Source: Desulfosporosinus sp.
GTDB taxonomy: Bacteria; Bacillota; Desulfitobacteriia; Desulfitobacteriales; Desulfitobacteriaceae
Direction of reading: 5' to 3'
Assembly: GCA_031292055.1 (NCBI GenBank)
Contig: JARLHV010000050.1
Span: 37,369-101,368 of the forward strand
Length of the DNA: 64,000 bases
The notes below the pieces were generated by a model. It saw only the letters and a list, made by a program, of their open reading frames with translations. It was not told the DNA's origin and did not search any database. Positions 20,909 through 47,383 of the stretch are shown here, in pieces (position 1 is the first letter of the stretch; each line of letters opens with the position of its first letter). The position numbers and the translations under genes were made by a program.

Positions 20909-22690
20909 TCAAAACCTGGTAACTGTTTTAGGATTTATTTTAATAGCTCCACTGTCTTCTAATTTACTTAAACTAGGATGCTTCCATATCCGATTCAGGT
21001 TTGGATCTTTCCTGTTCCAACCTAAGAGACCACACAGATATTTCTTCTCATAATTGCCAAGTGGCTGTTCCAATATTAATGAAGCCATTTGAGCTGCTTT
21101 GATATCAGTTTTACTTTCCTTTCGTGGAGCCGTTTTAGAATGAATATTTAGGTCAATCGGTTCACCAATTTGTATCCCAGGAAAGTTCCTTATCACCTCA
21201 TCAATAACCAACGGATTACTTTGAACAAGGAATATTTCTGAGCAGGGCTGTTCATTCCGATCAATACGTTTGATGGCTTGATAGATGTCCTTGGCTATAG
21301 AGCCAACCCTAATTTTTTCATATTGTTCGTCAATGAATCCGAAGCCACCAGTTACGTTATCCATTAAAATCTCGTTATCTACTGGCTCAACCTGTGAAAA
21401 GAAATGCTGATACGTGGCATAAAGTTCCATTTTCAATATATTGGTAGCAACGATCCAAACCTGATTGAAGTCTCTCCAATGGTTCTTACCAATCAAATTG
21501 CCATAATACGTAACAGCAATGTCCTGACCGTTATACTCATCACAAATACCGATATCTTGAAATCCCTGTTTCTTAAGATGAGCTACAATTTCATCTTTTT
21601 TATCTTTATGGACGACTACCAAAGTCTTATCGGTGCTGGATTTATACTTCCTAATTGCCTCACAAATCTTCTCAGGATAATCGATAGCATTTATTATACT
21701 GCCCTTACTCGTGCTGAACTTGTCCACTCGGATGACCGATTTCGTGTTATCGATTATTCTTGGTTGAATATCTACTGTCATATTAGGAGAGCAGTCATAT
21801 AGACGATCAATTCCTGCACTTGCATCCAGAATGATATTGTTCTGCAGTGACCATAACTTTAGACGGCTGTCGATGGCAGTAATTCTACCTTGGTAAGAAA
21901 AGCAAAGAGATGAACCTAGGATGCCTACCATTTCGAGAAATTCTTTAACTGATTTAAGGTCTTTAACTTTGCTTCTATTTGCCATTACATGGTTACGAAA
22001 TTCTATAAGTGATGCAAGGTCTACAGTTGGCCGACATGCAATTACACTTTTGCTTTTTGCAGTACCAAGGGTAATTTCATCAAATAAACCTGAACATAAT
22101 TCCGAAAGTTTATCTTGTAGCCAACGGCTTTTGAGAAAGGCAACGTGTTCCAAATATTCAACTTCAGTAAATGTATGAGTTGGAGGTTCAATTTGTTCGT
22201 CAATAACTAGAGTGTGTCTTCCTTGTTCAAAAATGGACCGTTTCTTCTCATCAAGGCATAAGTCAAGATACCTAGAGTGTGTAATGATAACAACTGGAAA
22301 GCTTGGGATAAGGTCAATATTTTTTCTGTCCTCTTCCCAGGTATCTCCGGTTATCCCTAGAGCAACCGTTTTCCCTACTAAATTGTTAATTCTTGTAACA
22401 CTATCAGTGACCTCGGGTTTGAACTTTTTTACCAATAGAAACTTACGTGTGCCACCCCTCAGACGGTACACGCCAATTGCGTTATCTGTCCCAAGAGATT
22501 TTCCGATCCCAGCTTCTATTCCTAACACAGTGAACCGCTCGATCCCGGTCTCACCAATAATTAGCAAATCACGAAGATGAGCCATCTGTATATTTTTGAG
22601 GATATGATCTTGGTCTGCTAAACCATCATGCCCAGCTTGGACCGTTTCCTCCTTGTTAATGGCGTAAACAGGTATATTTGACTCCATCAT
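20909..22690 (-). CDS. SF2-helicase-like protein, possible replication protein
   Basis: Walker A-like EAGIGKS, Walker B-like LVIDEQ, motif III-like ILDASA, late motif YQAIKRIDR; 593 aa. Confidence 0.55.
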   Translation of the reverse strand: MMESNIPVYAINKEETVQAGHDGLADQDHILKNIQMAHLRDLLIIGETGIERFTVLGIEAGIGKSLGTDNAIGVYRLRGGTRKFLLVKKFKPEVTDSVTRINNLVGKTVALGITGDTWEEDRKNIDLIPSFPVVIITHSRYLDLCLDEKKRSIFEQGRHTLVIDEQIEPPTHTFTEVEYLEHVAFLKSRWLQDKLSELCSGLFDEITLGTAKSKSVIACRPTVDLASLIEFRNHVMANRSKVKDLKSVKEFLEMVGILGSSLCFSYQGRITAIDSRLKLWSLQNNIILDASAGIDRLYDCSPNMTVDIQPRIIDNTKSVIRVDKFSTSKGSIINAIDYPEKICEAIRKYKSSTDKTLVVVHKDKKDEIVAHLKKQGFQDIGICDEYNGQDIAVTYYGNLIGKNHWRDFNQVWIVATNILKMELYATYQHFFSQVEPVDNEILMDNVTGGFGFIDEQYEKIRVGSIAKDIYQAIKRIDRNEQPCSEIFLVQSNPLVIDEVIRNFPGIQIGEPIDLNIHSKTAPRKESKTDIKAAQMASLILEQPLGNYEKKYLCGLLGWNRKDPNLNRIWKHPSLSKLEDSGAIKINPKTVTRF

Positions 22691-23979: not shown

Positions 23980-24024
23980 TTTATTACCTCCAAAATTTAG
24001 AATTGTGTTTAACGTTTTTAATTG

Positions 24025-24395
24025 CTAATGAGTGACGGCAGAAGAAAATATAAATCTCAAATAAGATAAAGTTGACCACAATCATTTTCGTAAGGCACAG
24101 GATGTGGTCAAATTTTTTACTTAAGAACAGTAGCCCTTTTGGAGTTGTTAATGTCACAGGAAAGACGTGGGTTTTGCCATTGAAATACTTCGTTGTATAT
24201 CTGATGTTGAAGTAACCTCTATCAAGGTATCTCTGGTAATACAGGCTAAGCGTCCTTTGAATATTGAAGATTGAAGATTGGTCTCAAAAGCACAACAAAA
24301 AATCCGTCTGGTTTAAATCCCACACGGTCTAATGCTTGTTAGGTTTGGTAGAAGAAAATGATTGCCTTTTTGTCCAGGGAATTACTAGTGGACAT
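24025..24395 (-). pseudogene. Degenerate KilAC antirepressor fragment
   Basis: ATG after GGAGGTG meets an early stop; another frame reads YYQRYLDRGYFNIRYTTK...VTLTTPKGLLFL (KilAC C-terminus). Confidence 0.55.
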
Positions 24396-25113
24396 CACCT
24401 CCTTTAATGACTCTTTCCAAAGTGAGAGAGCTATCGTTTCAGAGATTTTGTTTAACCCTTACACCTTGTCATTGTCGTAATACGCACTAAAGTCACTTAC
24501 AACCGGAAACATTTTTAATAAAGAACTACTGATGAAATGTCTTCCCCTCAATAGCTCTCTCCTAGATAAAATTCAATTTTCATTATCCCTTCTTTTTTGT
24601 AGGTGATGTTCCCTCTAATAGGTTATCCCTCACAAATCATCCGAAAGTGACTCTTTTCTGAAATGTTTTCAATGAGAATTAACAGCTGGGTAACAATAAT
24701 CACAAATATAGAAACAGCTTTAGCATCTTTGATAATTTTGGTTTTTATCTTCGCAAAGCCGCATAGGAAGAAAGTCTAGTTCTGTAACAATGACTTCTTT
24801 AATTACACTTTTGGTGGGGAGTTTCATTTTCGACATACCCGTAGATAGAACTAAATCACTTTTAATTTTCCTAAGTTATAGAGAATACTGTCCTTTAGTG
24901 AACCTCATCCCATTGCATATCCTTCTGAATTTCAGCACAGAATTTGCCTCAGTTCATCTTGTCTGCCATAATTTCCGCACTACTATGTTATGAAAGGTAG
25001 GACGGTGTCCAGAATCTTGCAATGTCTGTTTGCTCCACGTTCTGAACAGAGGTGAAGATGGGAACCACGTATATCCATGGGGTCGATAATATCGACATCA
25101 TACTTAAACGGTC

Positions 25114-25341
25114 TCAATTCTTCACTTTGAATCGGATAATATGTTTGCCCTTGATCAATTTGACGTAAGGGCAATACCATACTTGTGCTGTCGGGATATT
25201 GGCTTGGTATAAGGAAATCACTGAAGGGAAAATTTCCTTGAGTGGAAAATTCATACCCTTGATGCTTTTCACCAAATCGCAGTGTTGCTTTCCCACCTTT
25301 ACAGCTACGTCACGAGTTGAAATCACCCCATAGGGAGACAC
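25114..25341 (-). pseudogene. Rha-family phage regulatory protein fragment
   Basis: ISTRDVAVKVGKQHCDLVKSI resembles the Rha N-terminal motif (SREVAEMVGKxHxxLxRxI); short, no clear RBS. Confidence 0.5.
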
Positions 25342-25552
25342 CGGATTCTGTCTGTTAACAGACGGTTATACAAGGGGGTGAATTAAAGTAGCCCCTTTCA
25401 ATCGAAGGCAATGGGATTCACTAAGCTCAAAATTGAGGGCAGTGGACCTTCTATGAGCTTGTTAGGTTTGCAGGTTCGGTATGATTTTCCCATGGATCAG
25501 CCAAAAGGCAGCACGACACCACCTGGGCTATGGCACTAGCAGCAGCTTTTTT

Positions 25553-25616
25553 AAATGAGAAAAACGCCCCCACGTTTAAAACTTGAGAAGGCGTTGTTTA
25601 TATTTCGAGACAATGA
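25553..25616 (-). repeat. Structured leader motif, copy C
   Basis: Minus strand TCATTG...AACGCCTTC-TCAAGTTTTAAACGT-GGGGGCGTT-TTTCTCATTT; homologous to 26016-26082 and 29162-29240. Confidence 0.8.
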
Positions 25617-26015
25617 TTATTTAGTTAGTGTTCCTGCCAGACGTAGTTAACGCCCTGGCCTTTACTAGTCCGCCGATCATTTCAACTACCCACAAGTTGT
25701 TGGAGGTTGGAACGACTACCCTTTGAAGGGGGCCGTTCATTTCAGCTATTCGCAATTTACGGAACACTGGCTTGGGGGGGATCAATTATCGGCCACCCCC
25801 TTTGCCGGGTGGCCAGATTAAACTGGGAAAGACCAACCTACCCGAGTAACTATCAAACTGTCCGTTACTGCTGAAGAACCTTACTTAAGGGGTCTGTGAG
25901 CCTTCGTATATGCCAGTTCGGATTAGATTGCCCCTTGGATCGGCCAAAAGGTTGAGATGGCGTTATAAGCACGAACCCACTTGGGCTATGGTCCTATGGT
26001 CCTAGCACGTTATTC

Positions 26016-26082
26016 AAATGAGAACAACGCTCTTCCACGTTTGAAAACTTAAGAGAGCGTTATTAATAATTCAAAACAATGA
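26016..26082 (-). repeat. Structured leader motif, copy B
   Basis: Minus strand TCATTG...AACGCTCT-CTTAAGTTTTCAAACGTGGA-AGAGCGTT-GTTCTCATTT. Confidence 0.8.
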
Positions 26083-26159
26083 AGCCCCTTATTAGCACCA
26101 ATTGCACTTTGTTCTAAATGGGTCGTTATGAAGGTTAAGTTGCCATAGTGTCAGCTCGC

Positions 26160-26306
26160 CTAAGGGGCAGTTACTGTCACAGTGCAAGTAGCGATCTTAC
26201 AACCATCTTGTGAAGTTGCCGTAATGGTCGTTGTTCCTGCACTTACCCGGGTAACTATACCATTAGTGACTACAGTAGCTTTGTCGACTGTGAGGGACAA
26301 TGCATT
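26160..26306 (-). pseudogene. Orphan Ig-like (Big_2) half-domain relic
   Basis: KATVVTNGIVTRVSAGTTTITATSQDGCKIATCTVTVTAP*; resembles the Big_2 segment of the upstream gene but is out of frame with it and has no start. Confidence 0.6.
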
Positions 26307-26319
26307 GGATTAAGGCTTA

Positions 26320-31426: not shown

Positions 31427-32272
31427 TTACGAGAATGCCTTATCAATAGCTACCTCTAGATCTCTTTCTGTGGGCTTGGAATAACGTCTCGTTACATTGA
31501 TATCAGCATGTCCACACAGATCAGCTACAGTGGAGAGATCCACTCCTTTACTAACCAGTTCCCGTGCAAAGGTATGTCTTAGTGCATGAGGGTGAACGCC
31601 GTAATTGCTTAACATATGTTGGACTGCTCTCACACTGATTCTCTGACGGAAATTTGAGAAGAACAATGCTGGATCATTATCATCTCTGGTCTCAAGGTAT
31701 TTACTTAGGTATAAACGTGCCTCAGTCGAGAGTGGTACACGTCTTGAGACATTCCCTTTACCATTACGGACTGTGATGGAACCAGACCGTTCTCCCGTCA
31801 CTACGTCCGATCTGTCAAGTGCTACTAGCTCAGACACACGGATGCCAGTTCGAATAAGTAGGTTCACGATGGCAATGTCACGGGAATTATCGTTTCTCTC
31901 GACTTCACGAAGTAGGTTATTCCGTTCAGTACGTTCTAACGATTCAGGTGCAATATTTTTAGCTTGACGTGCTTGTGGTAATCGTATATTCTCGATTATA
32001 TTGGGGCTACCGATGAAACGAGCAAATTGGGAGATGGCTGCAAATCGGTTATTGATCGTGCTGGCACTGTTGCCCTTTGACTCTAAGGATTGAATGAATA
32101 GTTGAACATCTATTCGGGTTAGTTTAGCCAGATCTCCATCGTTATTTTGCAACCAGTCGTTGAACATTTCTAGTGAGTGCCTGTAGTTCTTGGCTGTCAA
32201 TTGACTCTTGCCTTTGTCCAAAATGTGAACCTGAAAATCATCAATGACTTTTACGACACTTTTTTCGTCCAT
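31427..32272 (-). CDS. Second tyrosine recombinase (XerC/D-like) of element 1
   Basis: RDIAIVNLLIRTGIRVSE, VRNGKGN, HPHALRHTFA, GHADINVTRRY. Confidence 0.92.
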   Translation of the reverse strand: MDEKSVVKVIDDFQVHILDKGKSQLTAKNYRHSLEMFNDWLQNNDGDLAKLTRIDVQLFIQSLESKGNSASTINNRFAAISQFARFIGSPNIIENIRLPQARQAKNIAPESLERTERNNLLREVERNDNSRDIAIVNLLIRTGIRVSELVALDRSDVVTGERSGSITVRNGKGNVSRRVPLSTEARLYLSKYLETRDDNDPALFFSNFRQRISVRAVQHMLSNYGVHPHALRHTFARELVSKGVDLSTVADLCGHADINVTRRYSKPTERDLEVAIDKAFS

Positions 32273-32557
32273 TAGAGCACCTCTTTTGCTAGGCTTAGGG
32301 CTTTATTATAACATAAATTGTCGTATAACTCAATTTATACGACACGCATATTAGTTTTACTATCTCATATATGTTAGAATGGAGTAACGGTTTACTCCAT
32401 CGATGGACGCTAGGATAGTGGCTTACTTTTCTAATTCGAGACAATTGTGTAGTCCTGATGCTTAAAAGCTGTATACTAATGTTGCCAATTATAATAGTGG
32501 TAAAGAAGGATTTTATATATACAGTGTTGAATAACAAATAACATTAGTACTACTAGA

Positions 32558-33301
32558 ATGAAGGTAGCAGAAGTTATGGATTTAACGGCACTAAAGGGGT
32601 TAGATGAGGCTGAGCTTAAGACAGTAGTTCGAAGTTATGAAAGGTTTGAAGACCATCTATTGTCCTATGAAGGAGATAACCAAAAACAAGCATTTGAGTT
32701 ACTCCGTGTGGTGTTAGATGACGAAGAAAAACATGCACTCTTAGAATGTTTGCTTGGTGATAATGGATGGTATTGTTCTAACAATGGACGTCATGCAAAT
32801 ATGCTTAAGGTAATATCCTATGCTTTAGGTCAAACTAGTAATAGATTTTCCTTTAGGAAATATAACCAAGATGCAATTGAAGTGCTACTACGAACCATAC
32901 CTAAGGATGAACAACTCTTGCTTATGAGTTCATATATTAAACAGAAGCTAGTTACTTATTATACCTTGGTCAATAACTCTATTACGGAACTAGAACTGTT
33001 TCGGGGGTTAGACGAATATCCATTTAACGAATACTATAGTTCGTGTAATTTGGAATCATGGTCTTTAAAGTTTAACAAAGCTCGACATTTTGCTTATCCA
33101 GAGGGTGTAGTCATTAGGAAAACCATACCAATAATTGATGTCTTTGTTTATAGAGACAGCATTTTTCAGCCGGAGAATGCATTGAATTTAGATTCATTTG
33201 GTTATATTAGTACTGAAGAGGAATATATTATCGAGAACCAAGGTAGCTTATTGGAGTTAAGAGAGGGCATTACCTTCGTCAAATACCAAGATCATTTTTA
33301 G
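32558..33301 (+). CDS. Putative ADP-ribosyltransferase toxin (R-S-E clade)
   Basis: LFRG (R), ESWS (S-x-S) and TEEEYII (E-x-E) in canonical order; first gene of a TAC-like triad. Confidence 0.65.
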   Translation: MKVAEVMDLTALKGLDEAELKTVVRSYERFEDHLLSYEGDNQKQAFELLRVVLDDEEKHALLECLLGDNGWYCSNNGRHANMLKVISYALGQTSNRFSFRKYNQDAIEVLLRTIPKDEQLLLMSSYIKQKLVTYYTLVNNSITELELFRGLDEYPFNEYYSSCNLESWSLKFNKARHFAYPEGVVIRKTIPIIDVFVYRDSIFQPENALNLDSFGYISTEEEYIIENQGSLLELREGITFVKYQDHF

Positions 33302-33307
33302 AGGGGG

Positions 33308-33694
33308 ATGGATAGAATGACGATTAAATTTTTTGACGAGATACTCAGAGAAACGGAAGAACAGGGCTTTGCTTCACTTCCGCCCAATTGTGTAAGTGGT
33401 GAAGGTTACGAGGAATGGCTAAGAACCGATTCAGGCTTGCAAACAGAACTAAAAGAAGTAAGTTTACACTTGGAAAAAATCAGAAATTTTTTCTCCAAAG
33501 ATATTGAAGAATATAAAATTATAAATAAAATTATAGATGAATATAAAACAATATCGTATCCGTTAACGATTCAAACGAGGACTCTTGAAAAGTTGGAATG
33601 TAATGCCGAATTTTTATCGAACTTGTCTAAAAATGGACAAGCCATTAATAATGTAACATGGAAAGGTAGCTCTGAATATGGCCGAGCAAGTTAA
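33308..33694 (+). CDS. Putative antitoxin with C-terminal chaperone-addiction tail
   Basis: 128 aa, lies between the ART and SecB-like genes and overlaps the latter by 17 bp. Function inferred from position only. Confidence 0.5.
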   Translation: MDRMTIKFFDEILRETEEQGFASLPPNCVSGEGYEEWLRTDSGLQTELKEVSLHLEKIRNFFSKDIEEYKIINKIIDEYKTISYPLTIQTRTLEKLECNAEFLSNLSKNGQAINNVTWKGSSEYGRAS

Positions 33695-34127
33695 CGAAAC
33701 AATTGCACAGATTTCTTTTAAGGGATATAAGGTTCATAGACTTGAATTTAGACTTAATGATAATTTTTATCCTAAGGAAAAGTCTAAGATAGAGCTTGAT
33801 ATGGATTTTGATATCGATATTGGGATTGACAGACAAGAGAATATAGCAGTAATTAGCCTAAGATGCTTAATAAACAAGGAATATGAATCTATGAATCAAC
33901 CGTTGTTCTTAGATATTATTATTCAAAGTTTGTTTTCATTTGAATCGGGATTGCAAGATGAAAATCTGTATAATCTTTTGAACACCAATGCTGTGGCAAT
34001 TGTATTCCCATACTTAAGATCGGTCATTAGTACTGTTACCGTAAATTGTGGTGTGCCTCCAGTTATATTACCAACTTTAAATATAGTAGAGCTTGTGAAA
34101 AGGAAAAATAAGGAGAAAATCTCCTAA
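33678..34127 (+). CDS. SecB-like chaperone
   Basis: 149 aa; NAVAIVFPYLRSVISTVTVNCGVPPVILPTLN matches the SecB C-terminal signature (N-x-x-A-I-x-F-P-Y-x-R...P-P-x-x-L-P-x-x-N). Confidence 0.85.
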   Translation: MAEQVNETIAQISFKGYKVHRLEFRLNDNFYPKEKSKIELDMDFDIDIGIDRQENIAVISLRCLINKEYESMNQPLFLDIIIQSLFSFESGLQDENLYNLLNTNAVAIVFPYLRSVISTVTVNCGVPPVILPTLNIVELVKRKNKEKIS

Positions 34128-34733: not shown

Positions 34734-34783
34734 GGCTTCCCAAGCCGAGGATCGCGAGTTCGAATCTCGTCGTCCGCTCCATA
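34734..34783 (+). repeat. att copy 2 (tRNA-Gly 3' half, 50 bp)
   Basis: GGCTTCCCAAGCCGAGGATCGCGAGTTCGAATCTCGTCGTCCGCTCCATA, identical to 19318-19367. Confidence 0.95.
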
Positions 34784-34922
34784 TGAAATACTAGGCACTG
34801 CAAAGGATTGCGGTGCTTTTTGATTTTCCTGCTGAAGCTTCATAAGTTCTGTTTGACGACAATTTGACGACAACCAGCGTTTAGTCAACAAAAAGAGAAG
34901 CGCTGAGGGCATCCTCAGCGCT

Positions 34923-36140
34923 TTATCTAACTGACTTTAGAATAATATTACCGAGCCGGGCAACTGCTCTTACTTTACCTTCCGGGGTACTATGCCCGTA
35001 AATATCTAATGTAGTACTCATCTTGGCATGGCCTAGAAGTTCGCTGACATTTGTTACGGCTTCACCATCATCCAGGAGAAGGGAAGCTACGGTATGGCGA
35101 AGATCGTGGACTCTAACGTGTTTAAGTCCAGCCTTTTTTATAATAGAGGCGTGTTTGCGGTTCAAATTCCGTGGTTCGATAGGGGTTCCAACTTCGCTGG
35201 TAAACAGCAGCCCACTGTCCTGATATCTTGGTCCAAAGAACATTTTTTCTTGTCGCTGCATAGCTTGAAATCGCTTTATTTCTTTGACTACTTCAGGTAA
35301 TAAAGGGATTATGCGTTTGCTCTTTTTAGTTTTTGGAGTGGAAAAAATGAGTTCGGATTTTTCTTCTCCTTCAAGCTTCTTCCGCTTTAGGGTTTGTATT
35401 ATATCAATTTTCGCTTTAGTGGGGTCAAATTGATCCCTTGGAATTCCCAGCAATTCTCCACGCCTTAGTCCGGTCGTCAGCTCTAACAAAAAGAGGGCAT
35501 ATAATCGATCCTCTCGCAGTGTCTCAAGATAAATTCGGACCTCTTCTTCGGTGAACGTCTCAAACTCTTTATACTGAATACTAGGAAGCTCAACTTCGTC
35601 CGCGGGGTTAAATGATAGCATGCGCAGTTTCAAAGCTTTTCTTAGGCAGCCGTTAATTAATTGGTGCATCATGTGAAGGCGACGGGTTGACAGGCCTCCT
35701 GCCTTGCCATCCATACGCCCGGATTTGGCCTTTAGATTATAGAATTCCTGAATGGTAATACCATGTAAGTCTTGAAGTGTTATTGCCCCAAGAAGGGGCA
35801 AAATATGCTTCGTAGCGAGGCTTACATAATCCGAATTAGTTTCTGGCTTAACATTTGGTTTTATGTAAATCTCAAGCCATTCTCCGAAGGTCAATTTTGA
35901 TGATTCTATATACATTCCCGAACGGAATTGTTGTTTAAACTCCGTTAGCTTAGCCTCAACCTCTTTTTGGCTCTTGCCAAAGAGAGATTTGCGTTTCGGT
36001 TTTCCCTCGCCATTATAGCCTATGATAATCTTCGCTTCCCAGCGACCGTCTGAGCGTTGATATAATGTGCCTTCATTATTAGCCCGTTTTCCAGCCTTCT
36101 TCTTTTTCTTCTTTGCTTTCTCTTCTACCATTCTGCTCAT
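34923..36140 (-). CDS. Phage/ICE-type tyrosine integrase of element 2
   Basis: N-terminal arm-binding region NEGTLYQRSDGRWEA; TTGLRRGELLG, VRVHDLRHTVAS, LGHAKMSTTLDIYGH. Confidence 0.95.
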   Translation of the reverse strand: MSRMVEEKAKKKKKKAGKRANNEGTLYQRSDGRWEAKIIIGYNGEGKPKRKSLFGKSQKEVEAKLTEFKQQFRSGMYIESSKLTFGEWLEIYIKPNVKPETNSDYVSLATKHILPLLGAITLQDLHGITIQEFYNLKAKSGRMDGKAGGLSTRRLHMMHQLINGCLRKALKLRMLSFNPADEVELPSIQYKEFETFTEEEVRIYLETLREDRLYALFLLELTTGLRRGELLGIPRDQFDPTKAKIDIIQTLKRKKLEGEEKSELIFSTPKTKKSKRIIPLLPEVVKEIKRFQAMQRQEKMFFGPRYQDSGLLFTSEVGTPIEPRNLNRKHASIIKKAGLKHVRVHDLRHTVASLLLDDGEAVTNVSELLGHAKMSTTLDIYGHSTPEGKVRAVARLGNIILKSVR

Positions 36141-36472: not shown

Positions 36473-36799
36473 TTAGATCGCAACTTCATTTACTTTTGTT
36501 TTATCAAGATATTCCGCAGTTAATTTTTGAAGTTCAGTTTGTCTATCAAATACGAGTTCCTTTTGACCACCTTTAGTCATATAAACGCTCCGTAGGTGAT
36601 CATCATGATTGAAGTGGTAGTGAAATATTGCTTCATTTCCATCTTCGGTCATACACTGCATTTCTGCTATAAGCCCACTTTCCTCTTTGTAATAAGTGAC
36701 GTATTTATAATTTGGCAACTTGGCGTTTTCTAAAAGGTTATACGGCGTTACTACAGGACGGTACAAAAGTTCGTAAATATTTTTAATATAGTTTTCCAT
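36473..36799 (-). CDS. Hypothetical protein (108 aa), partner of the helicase gene
   Basis: RBS GGGAGG; starts 33 bp after the helicase stop; no recognised domain. Confidence 0.7.
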   Translation of the reverse strand: MENYIKNIYELLYRPVVTPYNLLENAKLPNYKYVTYYKEESGLIAEMQCMTEDGNEAIFHYHFNHDDHLRSVYMTKGGQKELVFDRQTELQKLTAEYLDKTKVNEVAI

Positions 36800-36832
36800 T
36801 ATTAAACCTCCCTTAGGCGTTTTTATTTTAAG

Positions 36833-38637
36833 TTATGGTGTCCCAAGGTAGTCTTCTATAACCTTTTGTGCATATTCCAGAATTTCGGGGAGTTTTTCAT
36901 GTGCCATCTCGTAATCGTCTATACTCCAATTAGGCCTTTTAGCACCGACTTCTGAGTTAAGATAGTTTGCAAAATAGACGGCCAGCATACCACCGTTATC
37001 TTTAACCCTATTTTTTATCCATGAGAATCTCCCTTGAAATAATGGGCAATTTTTTAAGTTGTCACTATGTTGGTTGATAGAAAACCTGCTTATGAGTTCC
37101 GGGACAATAATTTCTTTTATTGTAACATCAATATCCTTTCGCTTACTAGCGAAATATTTGTCTGGCCGTTTGATATCTGAATCTTTATTTTCGGTTAAAT
37201 TAATTACTTTAAGAGCCTCTTCCCTGTTTATGTTGAGTATTTTTTGAATTTCGGCAATTTTCTCCTCGCGAATTTTGTCTTCTTCCTGTTTTCGCTTTAG
37301 AACAGCAGTAGTAAGATAAATATCACCGATTAGTTCTCCGGTCCCTCGCTCACTAGCATAACCAATATCTATGGGGTTTACTTTATCATTGTTCTTTGGA
37401 GAACCAGATAGTTGATCCTCAATTATATCTTGTTCTCTTAAGTGTTTTATTATCTCGCTTTCCTTCATTTCTTCCTTATAAACTTCCCACAAATCGTCAA
37501 GGCCTAGGTGCTTATGTGATACTATTTGACCGATATTATCTTCGGCTCTCAGTGCTAGCTCGTTAGGAATTGATCGCAGGATTCGTCCTATGAATTGAGC
37601 ATAAGGTAGTGGATTTCTAAAAGGTCTAAAATTGCTTGCTCTTTCAGCTCATCCGTGAGATTGCTATGAATAATGGTCGTAGGATATCCCTTGGAAACGT
37701 ACAAGTCCTTTATTTGTTCAGCATGATCAATGCTACAAGCTGTAGCAATAATCTTGTGGGGTACGTTATTGCCTCGCTCGAGCTTTTTCTCTAGTAACTC
37801 AATACTTTTATCAACTACCTTTTCAGAGCACTCTTTAGAATAGGCAACAGAACGGCTTACCCAGTCCTCGTCTTTCAGGTTCATTTTATAAATTTGATCA
37901 ACTGTGTAAGTCTTTGATGGGTCTTTGTCAATCGTGAGATATAGTTCACCGGGGATATAGGTTAGATTTTCGAGGCTTTTAACATATTCATTTGCCATAG
38001 CTTGGCTTAACTTATATATGTAAACCAGATCCCCAGCGATTTCTTTTTTGTCAGTTCGAATAGGGGTTCCAGTGACCTTAACAATTTTTGCACCTGAAAA
38101 GTGTTGGATTGCTTCCACCCATGTTCGGGCAGTTGAATGGTGTGCTTCGTCAATAATTATCATATCAAAAAAGTCAGAAGGGAGAAATTTAAGAGGCGAT
38201 GATCCTAAACGATTTTGTAACTTTTGGACATTCATCACTACAAGATTAGCTGCTTCTAGAACTTCAACCGTTGTCTTATTACTTTCAAATTCTACTAGTG
38301 ACGGTAGTGACTTTGGTCTCTCGAAAACTTTTCTCTTGAGCCAGAAGTTATCTGAGAGTTCGGGGTTTAATGCGTCGATAACGGTATCTTTAATTACAAT
38401 TTGTGGAGCGATGATTAACACTCTGCCTGAACATATGTTGTAAGGTAGTAAGCCCATGAGGCCAGTCTTTCCTACTCCTGTTGGTAAAATTATTATAGCA
38501 TGAGAGGTTTTTTTCTTTACAATGAAATGTTCATAAACGTGAAAATAGCCTTGGATTTGCGGTTCCCTTAAATCGTTATTGCCATATATATACGGTTCCT
38601 CATCCTTAAAGTAACTAGGATTGTAACCAAAACCCAT
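36833..38637 (-). pseudogene. DEAD/DEAH-box (SF2) helicase interrupted by a deletion/frameshift near 37630
   Basis: LPTGVGKT, IIIDEAHHS, VTGTPIR in the 5' ORF; the +1 frame resumes FRPFRNPLPYAQFIGRILR (motif VI) and continues into ORF 36833-37492; the motif V region is missing. Confidence 0.8.
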
Positions 38638-39000
38638 TTATAATTCCTCCGTATCTTAAATGTTTTTTAATATACCTAGCGGCCGTCTCATGAGTCAACA
38701 TAGGGTACTTCCTCAAGGAATTAGCATTAATTAATTGCTTATTCGATCTGCATAAATAATAAATACCATTTAATCCTATCTTTATATATTGTAGCATATT
38801 TATCTAATAATATTTTTTCTCTTTGAGAAAAATGTCTTGAGATCTTGCGGGCATTGCTCATTTTGTAATTTTTCTAATATAACGACTGGTCAGTTATTTT
38901 TTGAAGGCTTCTAAAATTGATGCGAATACCATCTAACATCAATAGATACCGGCCAAGTATTTTGATGCCCAATGTTTTCATCCATATATCAGGGGGCTCT

Positions 39001-39120
39001 AAAAAAACAAAAGCCCCGCATTTCTTTCCAACAAGAAAATGTGGGGCTAGTAGGCCATACAATATTGGTGCACCAGTTCTGATCTTTCTAAAAATGAGCT
39101 AGTGTATTGGTACTTTTTAT
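39001..39120 (-). ncRNA. Candidate small RNA, copy 2 (~115 nt)
   Basis: TATACT -10 (39129-39124) just after the SAS stop; same block order as copy 1; GCCCCACATTT/AAATGCGGGGC + T-tract terminator. Confidence 0.6.
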
Positions 39121-39160
39121 ATGAGTATAAGCTAGAATGTATTAGCGTTAAAGCCATCAC

Positions 39161-40126
39161 CTAAAAAGAGTATCCTAAATCTACAAATAAAGGGTGCAAT
39201 AAAGCGGGGGTGAGTGGCCAGTATTGTTTAACTTGGCTTCTTTTTTTAGCAATAAGATAATATAACACTAAAACAATAGGCTGGCGGTATAATAGGTTCC
39301 GATCATAATTTTTTTTGATCAAGTCGAAAACATATGGATGCTCTCTAAAATACGTGCTAATTTCATGCATTTGGACTGAGACCATGAGTTCTTTATATGC
39401 ATCAAGAATAAAAATGTTTAATCCCTTTTCAAATTCCGGCTCTTTGAAACTCGAATAGATTGTTGTTAATTCAGGAAGAAGTAAATGTTCATTACTATTT
39501 GCTTTTAGCATATCATTTACCTCCTCGAAAATCTTGTCCGTCGTTTCAATTAAGGCCATACTTTGAGCAATCAATCGATGCATTTTAGGTAATGTACGTG
39601 TTTTAGGCTTATAAACCGTATCGTGTGTTAGCTCGCTGTATGCATGCTGAAGCAGGGTTCTTATTTGCACTTCGCAGGGTGTACCAATTGGAATCTCTAT
39701 GTCTTCAAATTTTATCACTTTTCGATTTCTAACGATATAGTGTACAGATTGATAAGTAAATATATTAGGATTATCTAGGCGCTCTTTTTCAAAATCTCGA
39801 TCCTTCGAAGACTCCCATTCCTGTCGTTCTACAATGCATGAGAGTGTCTTTATATCATCAACCAATAGCACGACAAATCTTATACCAACTTTGTCTGTAA
39901 TGTCATCGAAAGGGTTTGAATATTCTTTTCCACAATAGAAAGCCTTCTGAATCAGAGAGTTAAGTTCTTTCACCCGGGATGTAGGTGTTATCCTAAGGAA
40001 AGTGGCGACATCTTCAACATCTTTAGTCAGTTCGGAAATTATTATTTCTTTTATGTATTCGCCCCAAGCAGTATAAATGTGTTTCTTACTATTAAACTTT
40101 TCAGTGAATTCTTGCTCTGTCATCAT
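39161..40126 (-). CDS. Small alarmone synthetase (RelA/SpoT domain protein)
   Basis: SRVKELNSLIQKA, DITDKVGIRFV, YQSVHYIV, CEVQIRTLLQHAYSELTHDTVYK; no hydrolase domain; ATG 4 nt after the upstream stop. Confidence 0.88.
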   Translation of the reverse strand: MMTEQEFTEKFNSKKHIYTAWGEYIKEIIISELTKDVEDVATFLRITPTSRVKELNSLIQKAFYCGKEYSNPFDDITDKVGIRFVVLLVDDIKTLSCIVERQEWESSKDRDFEKERLDNPNIFTYQSVHYIVRNRKVIKFEDIEIPIGTPCEVQIRTLLQHAYSELTHDTVYKPKTRTLPKMHRLIAQSMALIETTDKIFEEVNDMLKANSNEHLLLPELTTIYSSFKEPEFEKGLNIFILDAYKELMVSVQMHEISTYFREHPYVFDLIKKNYDRNLLYRQPIVLVLYYLIAKKRSQVKQYWPLTPALLHPLFVDLGYSF

Positions 40127-40130
40127 CTTA

Positions 40131-41198
40131 TCATTGCCCTTTAATAAAACCTTCAATACGTAGCGTTGTTTTTGAACCCTCATGTCCGATGATTTCGACC
40201 AATTCATCAAAGTTATCGGAGGGAGCACTTAAGCTTACGTTTGAAGAAAATGTAATCTGTCTTTTCTTTAGTTTGTTTTGTATCAGGCTAATATCTTTAG
40301 CTACAGCGTGGCTCGGAAATTCATTGGCCTCCATATAGCTGCAATAATCATCTTTTTGCTCTGGAGTAAGGTATTCATCGCCAAATGCAGAAACGTCCAC
40401 TACGTTACTTTGGGAGACTTTTAGATAAGAATGTAGTGCCGACTGAAGTTCTACTTTTTTCTCATCTTGAACATTTAAGTTATCAATATAATCTTTGGTA
40501 TGAGTATGAAAATCCATTGTCCATCTTTTATCACTTGGGGAAAATTTACATCCAAAAAAAGATTCATAGAAATAGATTGCAGCTCCCGCAGTAGTAGTCA
40601 CATTCATGTTTTGGTCATATATATAGGCTTTAAACTGTTCAGCTGTTCTGGGAGTGTTTGGTTCAGAAGCACCTTCTTTTTCGATAAACATACCAATTTT
40701 GTATAGCTTTTGTTGAGGAGTAAGGCACAAATCTGATAATAATTCTAATAGTAATTGTTCGGAATTTTGTCGCAAACTAAAGCCCTCATGGATCTCAGCT
40801 TTAATAAACCCGATATATCTATCTGAATTTGATCCAACGGTTCCATCGAAAATAACTACTACCCCTCCTGGGATATTCCTTGCGGTCTGGGCCTCAGCAA
40901 GTTTATAAGCTATGTTTTGTGATTTCACGATGAACTCCTCATCATTGGTATCTAACATCTTTGCAGCAACACCAAATGTATCGCCATCTTGTGAATTTAC
41001 AATTTCCATTTCAACACTATGTGAATTATGACCAAGAACATCAATAATCCTATTCTGAAGAATAGTTAAAGCGTTCGCATCTAAGTTGGCCAATGAATTG
41101 TTGTATCTAGGTGTCTGAATTTCCCGAGTTTCAGTTCTCTCGAAAACTTGGTGAACAATAACTCTGTTAATTAATAGATTTGCAAATTGGTTACTCAA
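40131..41198 (-). CDS. Nucleoid-associated protein (NA37/NdpA-like)
   Basis: INRVIVHQV, IAYKLAEAQ...IPGGVVVI, FIKAEIHEGF, KLYKIGMF, YFYESFFGC pattern; TTG start after AAAGGAG. Confidence 0.7.
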   Translation of the reverse strand: MSNQFANLLINRVIVHQVFERTETREIQTPRYNNSLANLDANALTILQNRIIDVLGHNSHSVEMEIVNSQDGDTFGVAAKMLDTNDEEFIVKSQNIAYKLAEAQTARNIPGGVVVIFDGTVGSNSDRYIGFIKAEIHEGFSLRQNSEQLLLELLSDLCLTPQQKLYKIGMFIEKEGASEPNTPRTAEQFKAYIYDQNMNVTTTAGAAIYFYESFFGCKFSPSDKRWTMDFHTHTKDYIDNLNVQDEKKVELQSALHSYLKVSQSNVVDVSAFGDEYLTPEQKDDYCSYMEANEFPSHAVAKDISLIQNKLKKRQITFSSNVSLSAPSDNFDELVEIIGHEGSKTTLRIEGFIKGQ

Positions 41199-41611
41199 AT
41201 TTAATTCTCCTTTCATTATAACAAATGGCCTAAAAGCGAATACCTGTCAAATTAACCAAAGCAATCTATTTCTATACTATCTAGATCGCTATTTAATGGC
41301 AGTGTTTCATAAGAAGTAATTGTGAGCTTACCATCATCACTAGAATTTTTCACTTCTATCTTGAAAATTGCTTCTATCGGTTTTTCGTAGCTATATGTTC
41401 CGATTTCACAATTTGATGTCTATCTATAAAATCCGCTAATTCATAATAAGTATTATTTAGTTTGAACTCCGCATAATTTATACCTCTATCAAAGGACCTA
41501 AATAAACAATTGGTATCTAATATTATATAATTCAATTCATTTTTACTCCTTTACTAACTAACTTCAATAGCGGGACGCACATTAAAGTCTCTTATGTTTC
41601 CTTTCATAACT

Positions 41612-42382
41612 TCATAATGATCCTCTTACGCCACACCACGCTGGCGTCTTGTCGTACATCGTCGCTATTTTTAATGGCATACACGATAACAAATATTTAC
41701 CCCACATGCGCTTAGTTTCAATCCTGAAGGGATATCCCATGACCTCAATATTTCCATCAACCTTACGAGGATTAGAGAAATAACTAACTAAGAATTCCCT
41801 AAAAGTCTCGCGGTCAAGCCTTATACTAGACGCATGATATTCCCAATCAATTCGCCCTAACGAAGGATCAACCATAACCCAAAGTCCAGGTATAATATCA
41901 GTCTCTGCTAATCTTCGCGCAGCAGCCTCCAGACTCACATCACAATACTTTGCGAGTTTATTCACCAAGAATACCAAACTATCCGAATACTTCCTCACAA
42001 AGTCTGATACAATCCACGTCGGCATTAATAAAGCCGCAGCAAAACTATCTGCCTCCTGCTTTTCGCGCTCCGACTCACCCACGCCAGGTTGCTGAATACC
42101 ACCTCTATGATCAAGAAGCACATGGCCGAATTCGTGAGCCACACCAAACCGTTGCACAGATACTGGTAAAAGAGAGTTGACATAAATCAGCGCTATTTCT
42201 TGAGCCACCATAAGTCTAGCTATTAAACCATCTGGCAAAGGGCGTCTATGGAGATGAATTTCAACATCAAGCTTCTTTTCTATGGCGTAGGCTATATGGT
42301 CTAGGGATAATGGAAATTTCTCTCTGACAAGATAACGTTCCACGAATGCTTGAGCGACTAAGTCCTCTCTTTCTCCCATCAC
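41612..42382 (-). CDS. ImmA/IrrE-family metalloprotease
   Basis: QRFGVAHEFGH (HExxH), EKQEADSFAAALLMP, VSLEAAARR. Confidence 0.9.
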   Translation of the reverse strand: MMGEREDLVAQAFVERYLVREKFPLSLDHIAYAIEKKLDVEIHLHRRPLPDGLIARLMVAQEIALIYVNSLLPVSVQRFGVAHEFGHVLLDHRGGIQQPGVGESEREKQEADSFAAALLMPTWIVSDFVRKYSDSLVFLVNKLAKYCDVSLEAAARRLAETDIIPGLWVMVDPSLGRIDWEYHASSIRLDRETFREFLVSYFSNPRKVDGNIEVMGYPFRIETKRMWGKYLLSCMPLKIATMYDKTPAWCGVRGSL

Positions 42383-42502
42383 CGCACCCCTCCAATTGTC
42401 GAAACATTACAATAATTGATGATATATGTCGAATGCATATTAAAACAAGACAACTACCCTAACCAGGGTAGTTGTTTATCTATAATATGTATATTTGGAG
42501 GA

Positions 42503-42913
42503 TCATTTTTTCTCTTGATTACCTTTCTGGCGTTCCCAACGTTCACGTTCAAGCTTGTATAGATGTTCAATCTGATCTTTAATGAGATTTTGGCTCTCTT
42601 CGGATAGATCTCTGGCTTTATAGAAAATGAGAAGTTCATCTTCGGGGGTGGGGCGAAATTCGTTTGTATTATCAGATGTAAGGGACTTGGGGTTAGTTGT
42701 TCGGCCAAGCAGATAATCAGTAGTAGTATTATAAAAATCTGCAATTTTAGAGAGCTTTTCAGCATCAGGAGTTCTTTTTCCAGACTCATATTGAGATATT
42801 GCTGCTCTGTCAAGATTAAGAAATCCAGCTAAATCTTCTTGATTTTTTCCAACACTTAATCGCAAATTCTTCATTCGTCTGGCTAAAATATTATCCAAAT
42901 TAATCACTCCCAC
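42503..42913 (-). CDS. XRE-family repressor (ImmR/CI-like)
   Basis: QEDLAGFLNLDRAAISQYESGKRTPD...TTDYLLGRT. Confidence 0.92.
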   Translation of the reverse strand: MGVINLDNILARRMKNLRLSVGKNQEDLAGFLNLDRAAISQYESGKRTPDAEKLSKIADFYNTTTDYLLGRTTNPKSLTSDNTNEFRPTPEDELLIFYKARDLSEESQNLIKDQIEHLYKLERERWERQKGNQEKK

Positions 42914-43054
42914 GATTTAGCATATCACAAATTGTTAACAAGAAGAATAACCTGAAATGGTAGTAACAAAATGTTATGAATGGCATTGACACGTAACGAC
43001 ATGTTAGGTATAATCTTAGTAACGTATTGTTAACAAAACGCAAAGGAGGGTAAC

Positions 43055-43288
43055 ATGATAGAGAAATTAAGAGAAAGACTAGGTATTACTAAGGCTGAGA
43101 TGATTAGCCGACTGGGTATAACACGTAATTACTATTCGATGATTGCAAACGGTGAACGCCCGATATCAATGAAACTTGGAATTAAAATTAGGGATGAATT
43201 TGGAATTTCGCTTGACATAATATTTTTTCCGAGCATGTTAACAATATGTTACTATCCAAGCAAAAAGCAATCTGATTTCTTAATTTAG
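43055..43288 (+). CDS. Cro-like HTH regulator
   Basis: LGITRNYYSMIANGERPIS; divergent from the repressor. Confidence 0.8.
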   Translation: MIEKLRERLGITKAEMISRLGITRNYYSMIANGERPISMKLGIKIRDEFGISLDIIFFPSMLTICYYPSKKQSDFLI

Positions 43289-43312
43289 ATGAAATGATTG
43301 AGGGGGATGAAT

Positions 43313-43660
43313 ATGAACCAAGCGGCTAAGGCAATTAGCGATCCAAAGATGATTGCAAAGAATATTTCTAACTGGGATGAGTTGCCGTTGTTTCTGACGG
43401 TTGAGCAAACAGCTCAACTTATGCAATGCGGAACTGCCCATATTTACAACTTAGCCAGAACCAAGGATTTTCCTGCCAGGCGCATGACCAAAACCATCGT
43501 TATATCAAGGGATGGTTTGCGTCAATGGGCCGAAGGTGATGAAAAGTGGAAGCAAAGTATTACAATCTGGCAGTGGCAAAATATCCTTCAGCAAATGCAA
43601 AGGATGGGTGAGGTTTTGGAAAGGATTGAAAAAGGCCGTAATTTATATACCGGAACGTAG
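43313..43660 (+). CDS. Excisionase-like helix-turn-helix protein
   Basis: LPLFLTVEQTAQLMQCGTAHIYNLARTKDFPARRM...ISRDGLRQW (HTH_17/AlpA-like). Confidence 0.75.
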   Translation: MNQAAKAISDPKMIAKNISNWDELPLFLTVEQTAQLMQCGTAHIYNLARTKDFPARRMTKTIVISRDGLRQWAEGDEKWKQSITIWQWQNILQQMQRMGEVLERIEKGRNLYTGT

Positions 43661-43677
43661 AAACGGAGGGGATATCA

Positions 43678-43827
43678 ATGAATCAAATCAGATGTCCCTA
43701 CTGCGGTAGAAAACTAGCTGAATTCAACCTACATGGAAAGCTACTATTTAAAACTAAATGCCAAAAGTGCGGGAAAATCGTAAATATCATGTTGGAATAC
43801 GGTAATAAGGGGGAGAAGCCCAGTTAA
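43678..43827 (+). CDS. Com-family zinc-ribbon protein, 49 aa (absent from ORF track)
   Basis: RBS GGAGGG; MNQIRCPYCGRKLAEFNLHGKLLFKTKCQKCGKIVNI..., two CxxC pairs. Confidence 0.7.
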   Translation: MNQIRCPYCGRKLAEFNLHGKLLFKTKCQKCGKIVNIMLEYGNKGEKPS

Positions 43828-44005
43828 TTACGATTAGTTTTAAATAAAACATTAATTATGCTATTAGGTTAGCCATATTCTACCACCCGATTTGAGTTTT
43901 AACCATGAGACAAACACACTAAGAAGTATTTATCCCTGACATTGCGTCCTGAAAGAGTCCCTTATCATTCTGAAAATTAATTAATTTTAGTGGAGTTGAA
44001 GCAAA

Positions 44006-44218
44006 TTGAAATACAACTTCAACGTAGAAATTAACGGTTATAAGCTGGGCGTTGCCGTTGATAAGCCAAGTTACTGGGGGATATACAAAATGGCACTGAA
44101 GCCATTTAGTGTTGAAACTATTAATGCGAGAGAGGCTCTATCTCACGCATATTATGCCTTAACTCATAGCGGGCGGATTCAGAGTCAATTCCTTAAGGGC
44201 AAATCTGTAAGGTTGTAA
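44006..44218 (+). CDS. Hypothetical protein
   Basis: 70-aa ORF, TTG start after GGAG, co-oriented with the early operon. Confidence 0.4.
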   Translation: MKYNFNVEINGYKLGVAVDKPSYWGIYKMALKPFSVETINAREALSHAYYALTHSGRIQSQFLKGKSVRL

Positions 44219-44241
44219 GGAAAGAAAGGGGGTCAAGAGCT

Positions 44242-45144
44242 ATGTCCATAGACATAAAAGACGCCGTGACACAATTAGAGGAAATGTTCTGCAAAATCAA
44301 TACTCAAGTATTCGGAGATAGAGCAAGGGCCAAATGGCCCGTGATCATTAACCGTTGTTTTCATCGTCAGTCTGTAAGCTATGAATACCAATATCCAGAG
44401 GCATTCTTCACGAATCTTCAATTTCAGCTAAGAATCCTTTTCCCCTACGAACTGATAAAGTCAAAATCGAATCGTCTTATCTTAGTAAAGCTGATCATCG
44501 ACAAGCGTATAAGTGGTGAGATTGATACATTTACGTACCATTTCGGAATGTTCTTAATCAATAGAAATTTACACCACAGAGAGAAGGAGGATTTCTCTGA
44601 ATCGTCCATCGGTAAAAAGAGGGCTGAGTTTGTTCAGACGCTGCCAATTTCCTACTTTTTAAGCGAGGATGATTTTATTTCAGCGATATGGTCTCAACTG
44701 ATTGAATATCGGGGGACGGAAACTAGAGAGTACCAACGAAATCCGTTTCTGAAAAATGTCCGGATTCTATTTAGCAATGAACAGTATGCTTCCGTGACAG
44801 GCGTTAGTTATTTCAGCGATGTTACTTGGGTGGAACCCATTTCAGGGAAACTCGATTTGGAATGCCGTAAATGGTCTGAAGAAAACGACCCAATGGCCCC
44901 GATTAGGATTCCAGAAGGATGGGTTCAAGGTGCTATTGTTTTGAAAAATGAAAGTTCGGGCCTGCGTCATTATGTAGAAAGTGTTCCTGTCCATGCCGGA
45001 AGCGCCATGCAGGTGAAATTCGGGAACGGATGGATTGATGGCCGGTATGAGTGGAGCTTTGATGGTAAAAATAAGATCCAGGTTCATTGTAATGATGATG
45101 TCGTTTATATTTCTGAAGGCCACCAAGTGAGAGTCAGAGGGTAG
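44242..45144 (+). CDS. Hypothetical protein with probable C-terminal DUF5348-like domain
   Basis: RBS AAGGGGG; C-terminal LRHYVESVPVHAGSAMQV...WIDGRYEW pattern. Confidence 0.55.
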   Translation: MSIDIKDAVTQLEEMFCKINTQVFGDRARAKWPVIINRCFHRQSVSYEYQYPEAFFTNLQFQLRILFPYELIKSKSNRLILVKLIIDKRISGEIDTFTYHFGMFLINRNLHHREKEDFSESSIGKKRAEFVQTLPISYFLSEDDFISAIWSQLIEYRGTETREYQRNPFLKNVRILFSNEQYASVTGVSYFSDVTWVEPISGKLDLECRKWSEENDPMAPIRIPEGWVQGAIVLKNESSGLRHYVESVPVHAGSAMQVKFGNGWIDGRYEWSFDGKNKIQVHCNDDVVYISEGHQVRVRG

Positions 45145-45171
45145 GAGTAGTAATTATTGGAGGGGTATTAA

Positions 45172-47225: not shown

Positions 47226-47383
47226 CATTCAATACAAGGGGATGATGACGACAATTTTGACGACAACGACGATAAAAAAAGCATCAAAAAGACAAAAGAT
47301 TGATCTTATTTAAATCTCTAGAACCTGCACCACACAGGACTTCCTGCTCTTAGCTACTATCAAGGTGAAACATAGGAATCGAA

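Follow-up and report, generated by a model that had tools for sequence, protein, structure and literature searches.

A modular design has been proposed for toxin-antitoxin-chaperone (TAC) systems, in which a SecB acts as the 'sensor' and gates a toxin-antitoxin pair, the 'warhead', that can be exchanged. In the literature considered here, the warheads named are two RNases, HigB and MqsR, and one ADP-ribosyltransferase (ART) of the H-Y-E type, CmdT. The last of these belongs to CmdTAC (PD-T4-9) of E. coli (ECOR22 / O112ab:H26), homologues of which have been reported in Gram-positive bacteria. In particular, CmdT is an H-Y-[EDQ] enzyme, that is, a diphtheria-toxin-type, exotoxin-A-like ART with a catalytic Y41 (PMC11618068). 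Here we analyse a 64,000-nucleotide stretch of Desulfosporosinus sp. DNA (contig JARLHV010000050.1, positions 37,369 to 101,368; hereafter the window) and, within it, a cassette of three open reading frames (ORFs) at 32558-34127. This locus is probably a TAC module in which ORF1 would be an arginine-type ART and ORF2 a chaperone-addicted antitoxin, and which would bring about phage-triggered abortive infection. We favour this reading because of the toxin, antitoxin, SecB synteny, the SecB identity of the third gene, the R-S-E signature of ORF1, its homology to the ModB protein of phage T4 and the mobile-island context.

The architecture and the logic of such a module are what specialists would expect; what sets this one apart is the clade of its toxin, the class of target that this toxin probably has, and its host. 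Judging from the sequences, the cassette would add a third class to the TAC warheads and would mean that an ART was recruited a second time, independently of CmdT, with toxin and antitoxin families that are tiny, unannotated and found in Clostridia. Full-text searches of the openly accessible literature gave no description of a Mod-type or R-S-E ART in a TAC. If our reading is true, ART toxins entered TACs at least twice and from different clades, and TAC immunity works in Gram-positive anaerobes without a housekeeping SecB. What is more, a cultured host, Clostridium pasteurianum, would carry a member amenable to study (WP_267186996.1), and the ORF1 and ORF2 families would supply profiles that are missing from current defence-annotation libraries. 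The ORF1 warhead would then be related to enzymes that phages use for host takeover, while the ORF2 family has no known relatives.

The triad and its described counterparts

All three genes lie on the plus strand. ORF1 (32558-33301, 247 aa) encodes the predicted toxin, a Mod-like ART of the R-S-E clade; ORF2 (33317-33694, open from 33308; 125 aa, or 128 aa from 33308) encodes the predicted antitoxin; and ORF3 (33678-34127, 149 aa) encodes a SecB-like chaperone of the TAC type. The initial annotation had described three tightly linked genes, with a 6-bp gap between ORF1 and ORF2 (counted from 33308) and a 17-bp overlap between ORF2 and ORF3, and both the coordinates and the distances are as claimed. 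That said, the start of ORF2 is most likely the ATG at 33317, giving 125 aa, because a GGGGG Shine-Dalgarno sequence (33302-33306) abuts the ATG at 33308 but lies about 10 nt from the one at 33317, and because independent database gene calls are of 125 aa and relatives start with M-[TAS]-IK. The gap between toxin and antitoxin would therefore be 15 bp. ORF1, for its part, may start at M7 (32576), as this fits the length of most of its relatives (239-244 aa).

The arrangement is not peculiar to the window. The genomic surroundings of 11 members of the ORF1 family were compared (locus L007 is cut), and toxin, small ORF and SecB follow one another in 10 of the 11 evaluable loci: the window, L004 (a Desulfitobacteriaceae metagenome-assembled genome, MAG), L005/L006, L010, L013, L014, L015, L016, L017/L018 (Clostridium sp.) and L019 (the complete genome of C. 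pasteurianum). Gene junctions in the family loci range from -31 to +40 bp, and identity to the window is 28-39% for the toxin and 27-45% for SecB. In other words, the order of toxin, small partner and SecB-like chaperone, as initially proposed, is a unit that is kept across divergent relatives, with identities of no more than 23-39%. The remaining locus, L008 (1268-3392), encodes a divergent ORF1-family toxin with a LESYT variant, followed by a 92-aa antitoxin-like protein ending in -ATY and, in the SecB position, a 359-aa protein that weakly matches HNH_5; it may be a chaperone-independent version of the toxin-antitoxin pair.

ORF3 was initially called clearly SecB-like, and this is borne out by its match to Pfam SecB (1.2e-8, 35.4 bits, with a cut-off of 26). 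It also matches the phage SecB-like family phrog_21664 (1.2e-20) and the H. influenzae SecB structure 1fx3 (E = 0.02). A housekeeping SecB it is not, since it falls under all NCBIfam housekeeping SecB equivalog cut-offs (at best 37.7 bits against 143, and for TIGR00809 31.6 against 102.8) and its operon partners are the predicted toxin and antitoxin rather than secretion genes. Firmicutes generally lack a housekeeping SecB.

Whether ORF3 is specifically a CmdC is a different question. Namely, the PADLOC profile of CmdC, PD-T4-9_C, gives ORF3 84 bits (2.5e-24), but in control comparisons the same profile gives 50 bits to the SecB of a TAC with a helix-turn-helix (HTH) antitoxin on a Secundilactobacillus plasmid and 58 bits to that of an unrelated triad on an Enterococcus faecalis plasmid. 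The profile is thus unspecific, and the match of ORF3 to it means 'TAC-type SecB', not CmdC; orthology to CmdC was set aside for this reason, as the profile also matches SecBs of unrelated TACs. The PADLOC check that had been suggested for the cassette came out divided, with this unspecific match for ORF3 and, for the other two genes, no match to PD-T4-9: its toxin and antitoxin profiles match neither ORF1 nor ORF2 (toxin profile against ORF1 at E<=1), nor the 24 relatives (E<=0.1).

The E. faecalis triad used as a control deserves a word of its own. It lies on plasmid pNY13412 (NZ_CP104857.1; locus L021, 1026-2375), with a tyrosine recombinase on one side and an AbiGii gene on the other, and encodes proteins of 218 aa and 89 aa, both without a PADLOC match, followed by a SecB of 128 aa. 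The 218-aa protein was considered as a relative of ORF1 and is unrelated to the ORF1 family; the triad is probably another undescribed Firmicute TAC warhead.

How close, then, is the cassette to CmdTAC? Both are operons of toxin, antitoxin and chaperone on a mobile element, in which the first gene encodes an ART-superfamily toxin, the second a small antitoxin whose C-terminal part is poorly conserved and the third a SecB-like protein, and the expected logic, in which chaperone titration leads to antitoxin proteolysis and toxin release, would be the same. On the other hand, ORF1 carries R-S-E without an invariant histidine, whereas CmdT is of the H-Y-[EDQ] type; CmdA ends in -LAA and ORF2 in -RAS; the named hosts of the ORF1 family are Clostridia; and CmdT modifies adenine in GA of mRNA, while the acceptor of ORF1 is likely a protein arginine. 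Of three features by which membership in CmdTAC may be judged, two, namely the toxin family and the antitoxin family, are different here. Orthology of the cassette to CmdTAC was thus rejected on the grounds of the catalytic signature and the missing CmdT and CmdA profile matches, and the label 'CmdTAC-like' in the initial annotation does not extend to the level of toxin and antitoxin, where the ART clade is another one. The same annotation had suggested that the Gram-positive host may be a mark of novelty, which has to be given up in view of the reported Gram-positive homologues of CmdTAC and of the TAC-type SecBs that occur on Firmicute plasmids and in Streptococcus satellite phages. It is the families of toxin and antitoxin that are new, not the Gram-positive host.

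Other described systems share parts of this design. HigBAC, the Mycobacterium tuberculosis TAC (Rv1955-57) and the operon of an HTH antitoxin and SecB on a Lactobacillaceae plasmid have the same gene order, a SecB-like chaperone and an antitoxin with a C-terminal chaperone-addiction extension. Their toxins, however, are described as RNases (HigB, and the MqsR type as well), and an HTH DNA-binding domain is present in HigA, whereas the toxin of the cassette is a predicted ART and neither a DNA-binding domain nor a known antitoxin domain can be recognised in ORF2. In DarTG and ParST/RES, on the other hand, ART-superfamily toxins are neutralised by a cognate partner, and some of these systems are anti-phage, but they consist of two genes without a chaperone, and DarT acts on DNA and DarG reverses this enzymatically. 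ParT carries a RES domain and modifies Prs. It has been set apart from the R-S-E class (PMC7827354).

ORF1 and its kinship with T4 ModB

An exhaustive HMMER search of 1.84 billion representative proteins (E<=1e-3) gave an ORF1 family of 35 representatives, of which about 24 are full-length (222-256 aa). Every member is annotated as 'hypothetical protein', and the named hosts are all Clostridia. Word-indexed homologue searches with ORF1 and ORF2 returned the query itself only; a tblastn search of ORF1 against 50,697 phage and 72,556 plasmid records found zero relatives; ORF1 has no match in PHROGs; and sequence searches of the PDB, whether started from ORF1 or from the family profile, gave chance matches only. 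Pattern scans, for which the full 24-sequence alignment is too divergent, found one locus among GTDB species representatives (the Desulfitobacteriaceae MAG), one locus among JGI metagenomes and none in IMG/VR. A match of ORF1 to PADLOC PD-T7-3 (E 3e-4) was rejected as spurious, given that no other family member matches this profile.

The motifs on which the initial annotation had based its ART assignment, LFRG (147-150), ESWS (166-169) and EEEY (220-223), are all present in ORF1, and R149, S167 and E222 are invariant in the family. In the 24-member alignment, they stand beside invariant E57, G70, W71, K128, Q129, L147, G150, A175, G183 and E226; E220 is retained in most members, and no histidine is invariant. 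The family as a whole thus carries an R-S-E signature, L-[YF]-R149-G, E-S167-W-[TS] and E220-x-E222, in ART order. The AlphaFold2 model of ORF1 (pLDDT 91, pTM 0.90) consists of an N-terminal helical lobe (about residues 17-139) and a beta-rich catalytic lobe (144-242), in which the strands follow the order b1 (with R149), b2 (with S167), helix, b3, b4, loop and b5 (with ExE). What had been taken initially for a long N-terminal extension added to the toxin is, in this model, an integral helical lobe that runs through the family and the last helices of which are common with ModB. In a Foldseek search against BFVD, a collection of predicted viral structures, the model matches several 'ADP ribosyltransferase domain' proteins, ModB, ModA and head-morphogenesis or minor-capsid proteins (E 4e-6 to 8e-4, probability 0.8-1.0).

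The kinship with ModB is seen in profile comparisons as well. With hhalign, the ORF1 family aligns to the single T4 ModB sequence over 122 columns (P = 3e-4), with LYRG on LYRG, LESWT on VDSFT and ExEYIV on EQEWMI in register, and to a six-sequence ModB profile with a probability of 82% (E = 1e-5). As a control, 200 column-shuffled ModB profiles scored 13.5±2.4 (at most 25.7) and the reversed profile 8.6, whereas the real one scored 42.3, about 12 standard deviations above the shuffles. The NAD-binding core is homologous in the two proteins, their LYRG, S-x-T and E-x-E motifs being aligned in register, and they also share the helices before the arginine strand. That said, they differ in several respects. 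Identity between them is about 19-21%, and ORF1 lies outside the ModB relatives recovered by sequence search; ModB is a 207-aa phage takeover enzyme without an antitoxin or chaperone, whereas ORF1 has some 80 extra N-terminal helical residues with invariant positions of their own (E57, G70, W71) and sits in a TAC operon on bacterial islands and prophages. By its sequence, then, ORF1 is a putative ART of the R-S-E clade with predicted enzymatic activity, and its nearest characterised relative is T4 ModB. The initial assignment to the ARTs gains from this, in that the motifs R, S-x-[ST] and E-x-E are found family-wide and are homologous to those of a bona fide ART.

What ORF1 would modify is suggested by its ARTT loop, defined as X-X-phi-X-X-[E/Q]-X-E (PMC7827354). 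The corresponding stretches are G215-Y-I-S-T-E220-E-E222 in ORF1 and M-M-I-V-R-E-Q-E in ModB, both with Ile at phi and Glu at position 6. Gln occupies position 6 in C3, with an asparagine acceptor, and in ScARP, with a guanine acceptor, whereas Glu goes with arginine (PMC7827354). According to its annotation, ModB modifies ribosomal protein S1, EF-Tu and trigger factor. Its kinship with ORF1, together with the E-x-E loop, leads us to favour arginine residues of host proteins over mRNA as the target of ORF1, and this is the least secure step of the proposal.

It could be argued, alternatively, that the cassette is an orthologue or functional equivalent of CmdTAC, and that ORF1 ADP-ribosylates single-stranded mRNA and thereby blocks translation. 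The gene order and the chaperone family agree with such a view, as do the 84 bits of ORF3 against the CmdC profile and the existence of Gram-positive CmdTAC homologues; ModB itself handles RNA-linked NAD, and some R-S-E ARTs, ScARP for instance, act on nucleic acids (PMC7827354). We nevertheless regard it as improbable, since the CmdC profile is generic for TAC SecBs, CmdT with its H-Y-[EDQ] triad and Y41 is of another type than an R-S-E protein without an invariant histidine, neither the CmdT nor the CmdA profile matches, and ScARP has Gln at the ARTT position where ORF1 has Glu (PMC7827354). As ORF1 is not of the CmdT family, the mRNA target of CmdT is not transferable to it.

A second alternative concerns the acceptor as such. 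NAD+ depletion is a common outcome of abortive infection, and ORF1 might kill simply as an NADase, with no transfer of ADP-ribose to a macromolecule. Indeed, both the R-S-E and the H-Y-[EDQ] clades include NADases (PMC9503650). Yet the loop of ORF1 is a complete ARTT-type loop with E-x-E, and its homology to the protein-modifying ModB points to a macromolecular acceptor, while the conserved residues of the helical lobe (E57, G70-W71, K128-Q129) suggest substrate recognition, and on balance we consider an NADase unlikely.

The predicted antitoxin and a possible mode of action

An equivalent of ORF2 is present by position in all 11 family loci. In most of them, the middle protein can be aligned over its first 35-40 residues only (M-x-IK-F...EI...G...[EF]-E-x-W-L-R), and its total length varies from 75 to 183 aa, the C-terminal part being hypervariable in both length and sequence. 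The last 25 residues contain one to four aromatics, W118 and Y124 in ORF2, the tail of which (NNVTWKGSSEYGRAS) is present as initially quoted and ends in -GRAS. Two small residues stand at the C-terminus of nine of the ten SecB-linked middle proteins (-KAA, -EAA, -KAA, -TAA, -EAS, -RAS, -LVA, -LAC and -LCA). These ends resemble LAA, the ClpXP degron at the C-terminus of CmdA and of other TAC antitoxins; the resemblance would be one of analogy, and homology is not implied. Within the variable part of ORF2, there is in addition an internal 27-nt tandem duplication (33497-33553, 78% identity), encoding KDIEEYKII and KIIDEYKTI, and this repeated Tyr-containing motif might be a repeated chaperone-binding element. 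Taken together, a conserved head, a fast-evolving aromatic tail and a degron-like end fit an antitoxin that is, by prediction, chaperone-addicted.

How such a module might work can be outlined as follows, with the M. tuberculosis TAC, HigBAC and CmdTAC as models. The conserved N-terminal part of ORF2, some 40 residues, would bind and neutralise ORF1, while ORF3 would hold the variable aromatic tail and shield ORF2 from aggregation and from Clp-type proteolysis. Upon infection, newly made phage structural proteins would titrate ORF3, by analogy with HigBAC and CmdTAC, whereupon ORF2 would be degraded and ORF1 set free. As an NAD+-dependent mono-ADP-ribosyltransferase, free ORF1 would modify host proteins that are essential, most plausibly components of translation or transcription, as ModB does, so that the cell would be arrested and the infection aborted. 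In this outline, we infer the toxicity, its neutralisation, the chaperone addiction, the protease, the trigger, the target and the anti-phage role. One can go further and speculate, with considerable reserve, that Clostridial mobile elements have domesticated a phage-type arginine ART of the Mod family, which now serves as the warhead in a SecB-gated abortive infection, that ORF3 senses the structural proteins of Gram-positive phages, and that ORF1 would be the first TAC toxin to modify proteins (or, as ModB does, to join NAD-capped RNA to them) instead of cleaving or modifying mRNA.

A number of observations weigh against this reading, and they should be set out together. As concerns ORF1, it matches none of the ART families of Pfam, NCBIfam or PADLOC; DRAT matches are weak (E 0.03-0.05) and occur in two to three family members only; an hhalign comparison of the family with ModA found nothing; and a Foldseek search of the model against the PDB gave nothing significant, the sole ART being VahC with E = 4. 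The first Glu of ExE, moreover, is A, V or Y in four members, and acceptor specificity may therefore differ within the family. As concerns ORF2, homology to any antitoxin is undetectable in Pfam, NCBIfam and PHROG, where it has no match, and in PADLOC, which gave only a chance-level Csn2; its single-sequence structure model is uninformative (pLDDT 38); and it ends in -RAS rather than -AA, the C. pasteurianum copy even in -IEG. Finally, the L008 locus has toxin and antitoxin without SecB, and the sequence was found in DNA runs of bioreactor and soil metagenomes only, in no RNA libraries.

Could it be, in the light of the points that concern ORF1, that the protein is not an ART at all, its R/S/E pattern and its similarity to ModB being convergent or spurious and its activity another one? 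The silence of the curated ART families and of the PDB would be accounted for in this way, and the hhalign probability is 82%, not above 95%. However, the ModB score lies far above its shuffles, the three catalytic motifs are in register and family-invariant, and the significant BFVD matches include several annotated ARTs, so that we hold this to be very improbable indeed. What is more, the Pfam copy used in the scans also misses the genuine T4 ModA and ModB (encoded by T4 modA and modB at L011, 3909-5131), and its silence on ORF1 therefore carries little weight; a precomputed table, unlike the Pfam-A copy scanned, gives PF26816 for ModB relatives. The search for an ART fold with Foldseek, as initially recommended, thus gave significant matches, annotated ARTs among them, against the viral models of BFVD and none against the PDB, and in view of the latter the ART fold of ORF1 rests on predicted viral structures and profile homology.

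Island context in the window

The cassette is carried by an integrative island. Three copies of the 3' end, about 50 nt, of a tRNA-Gly(ccc) gene lie in the window, and from these we deduce two islands in tandem. The complete gene (19291-19365, plus strand) is the integration target and the left boundary of island 1, with its 3' copy, that of the real gene, at 19318-19374; a partial 3' end at 34734-34790 (plus strand), 95% identical to 19318-19374, is the attR of island 1 and at the same time the left boundary of island 2; and a further 3' copy, with 89% identity, lies at 47381-47437. Metagenome assemblies break at the 34734-34790 copy. Island 1 thus spans about 19.37-34.78 kb (about 15.4 kb) and island 2 about 34.79-47.43 kb (about 12.6 kb), each with a tyrosine integrase of its own, of 314 aa beside the tRNA-Gly gene in island 1 (19529-20473, plus strand) and of 405 aa as the first gene of island 2 (34923-36140, minus strand). 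The cargo of island 1 comprises an ANT-domain protein, two CWB2 cell-wall-binding proteins and a XerC/D-like recombinase, and the TAC comes last before attR. The relatives of the cassette are found in comparable company: the C. pasteurianum copy (WP_267186996.1) lies inside a prophage that also encodes an SPP1-type portal and a Mu-F protein, and other copies adjoin insertion sequence (IS) elements, MobC or replication genes, or a TIR protein.

Given this context, one may ask whether the triad does no more than keep its island or prophage in the genome, as a plain module of addiction or stabilisation would, without phage sensing or defence. Its position at the island edge, between a recombinase and an att site, would agree with this, as would the prophages, IS-flanked segments and mobilisable elements on which its relatives reside, and the M. 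tuberculosis TAC was first described as stress-responsive, not anti-phage. However, both E. coli TACs that have been tested defend against phages, by way of chaperone titration by phage structural proteins, and the genes next to the cassette are defence-like. We therefore consider a pure stabilisation role rather unlikely, with the qualification that the two roles can coexist, and retain the reading of the locus as a phage-triggered TAC.

The defence-like cargo of island 2 spans 36473-46634. It includes a ResIII helicase of 349 aa only, which matches the middle of type I/III/IV restriction enzymes and is possibly a fragment; a RelA/SpoT-domain protein (39161-40228; PADLOC candidate PDC-S33), the gene of which is overlapped by that of an NA37 nucleoid-associated-family protein (40131-41216); a capP/ImmA-like peptidase (41612-42382); and a Mrr-like nuclease domain (46032-46634).

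Upstream of the cassette and divergent from it lies the gene of the XerC/D-like tyrosine recombinase (31427-32272, minus strand, 281 aa), which matches Pfam Phage_integrase (1.9e-32) together with a SAM-like N-terminal domain. A recombinase of the C. pasteurianum locus (L019, 12315-13196) is 31% identical to it (E = 1e-42) and lies 1.2 kb from the TAC there, so that in both genomes such a recombinase is found within about 1.2 kb of the TAC. This proximity may be a coincidence or may reflect a linked mobility function, and the association is uncertain. Between the recombinase and ORF1, at 32319-32344, there is a 10-6-10 palindrome, TGTCGTATAA-CTCAAT-TTATACGACA, which belongs to a wider set of repeats. 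Namely, the motif TGTCGTMWAA has 7 occurrences where 0.68 would be expected, including this palindrome, half-sites at 32249, 34623, 34852 and 34863, and also 47256, and a variant of it, TGTCGTCAAA, is found just within both ends of island 2. The palindrome and the repeats may be core or arm sites of the recombinase, or else operators. That the cassette could be invertible or excisable between TGTCGT repeats was considered and rejected, as four metagenome assemblies contain no alternative junctions, although contigs could miss rare forms.

Some minor features of the window remain to be mentioned. Island 1 contains an ORF of 593 aa (20909-22690) that has no match in Pfam or PADLOC, and a stretch of 2.3 kb (23980-26319) with no ORF of at least 90 aa. 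CWB2 proteins such as those of island 1 are typical of Gram-positive bacteria and fit a Firmicute origin. Finally, a tRNA-Sec gene is located at 3072-3169; it implies an organism that uses selenoproteins, which fits an anaerobic host of the Clostridia type.

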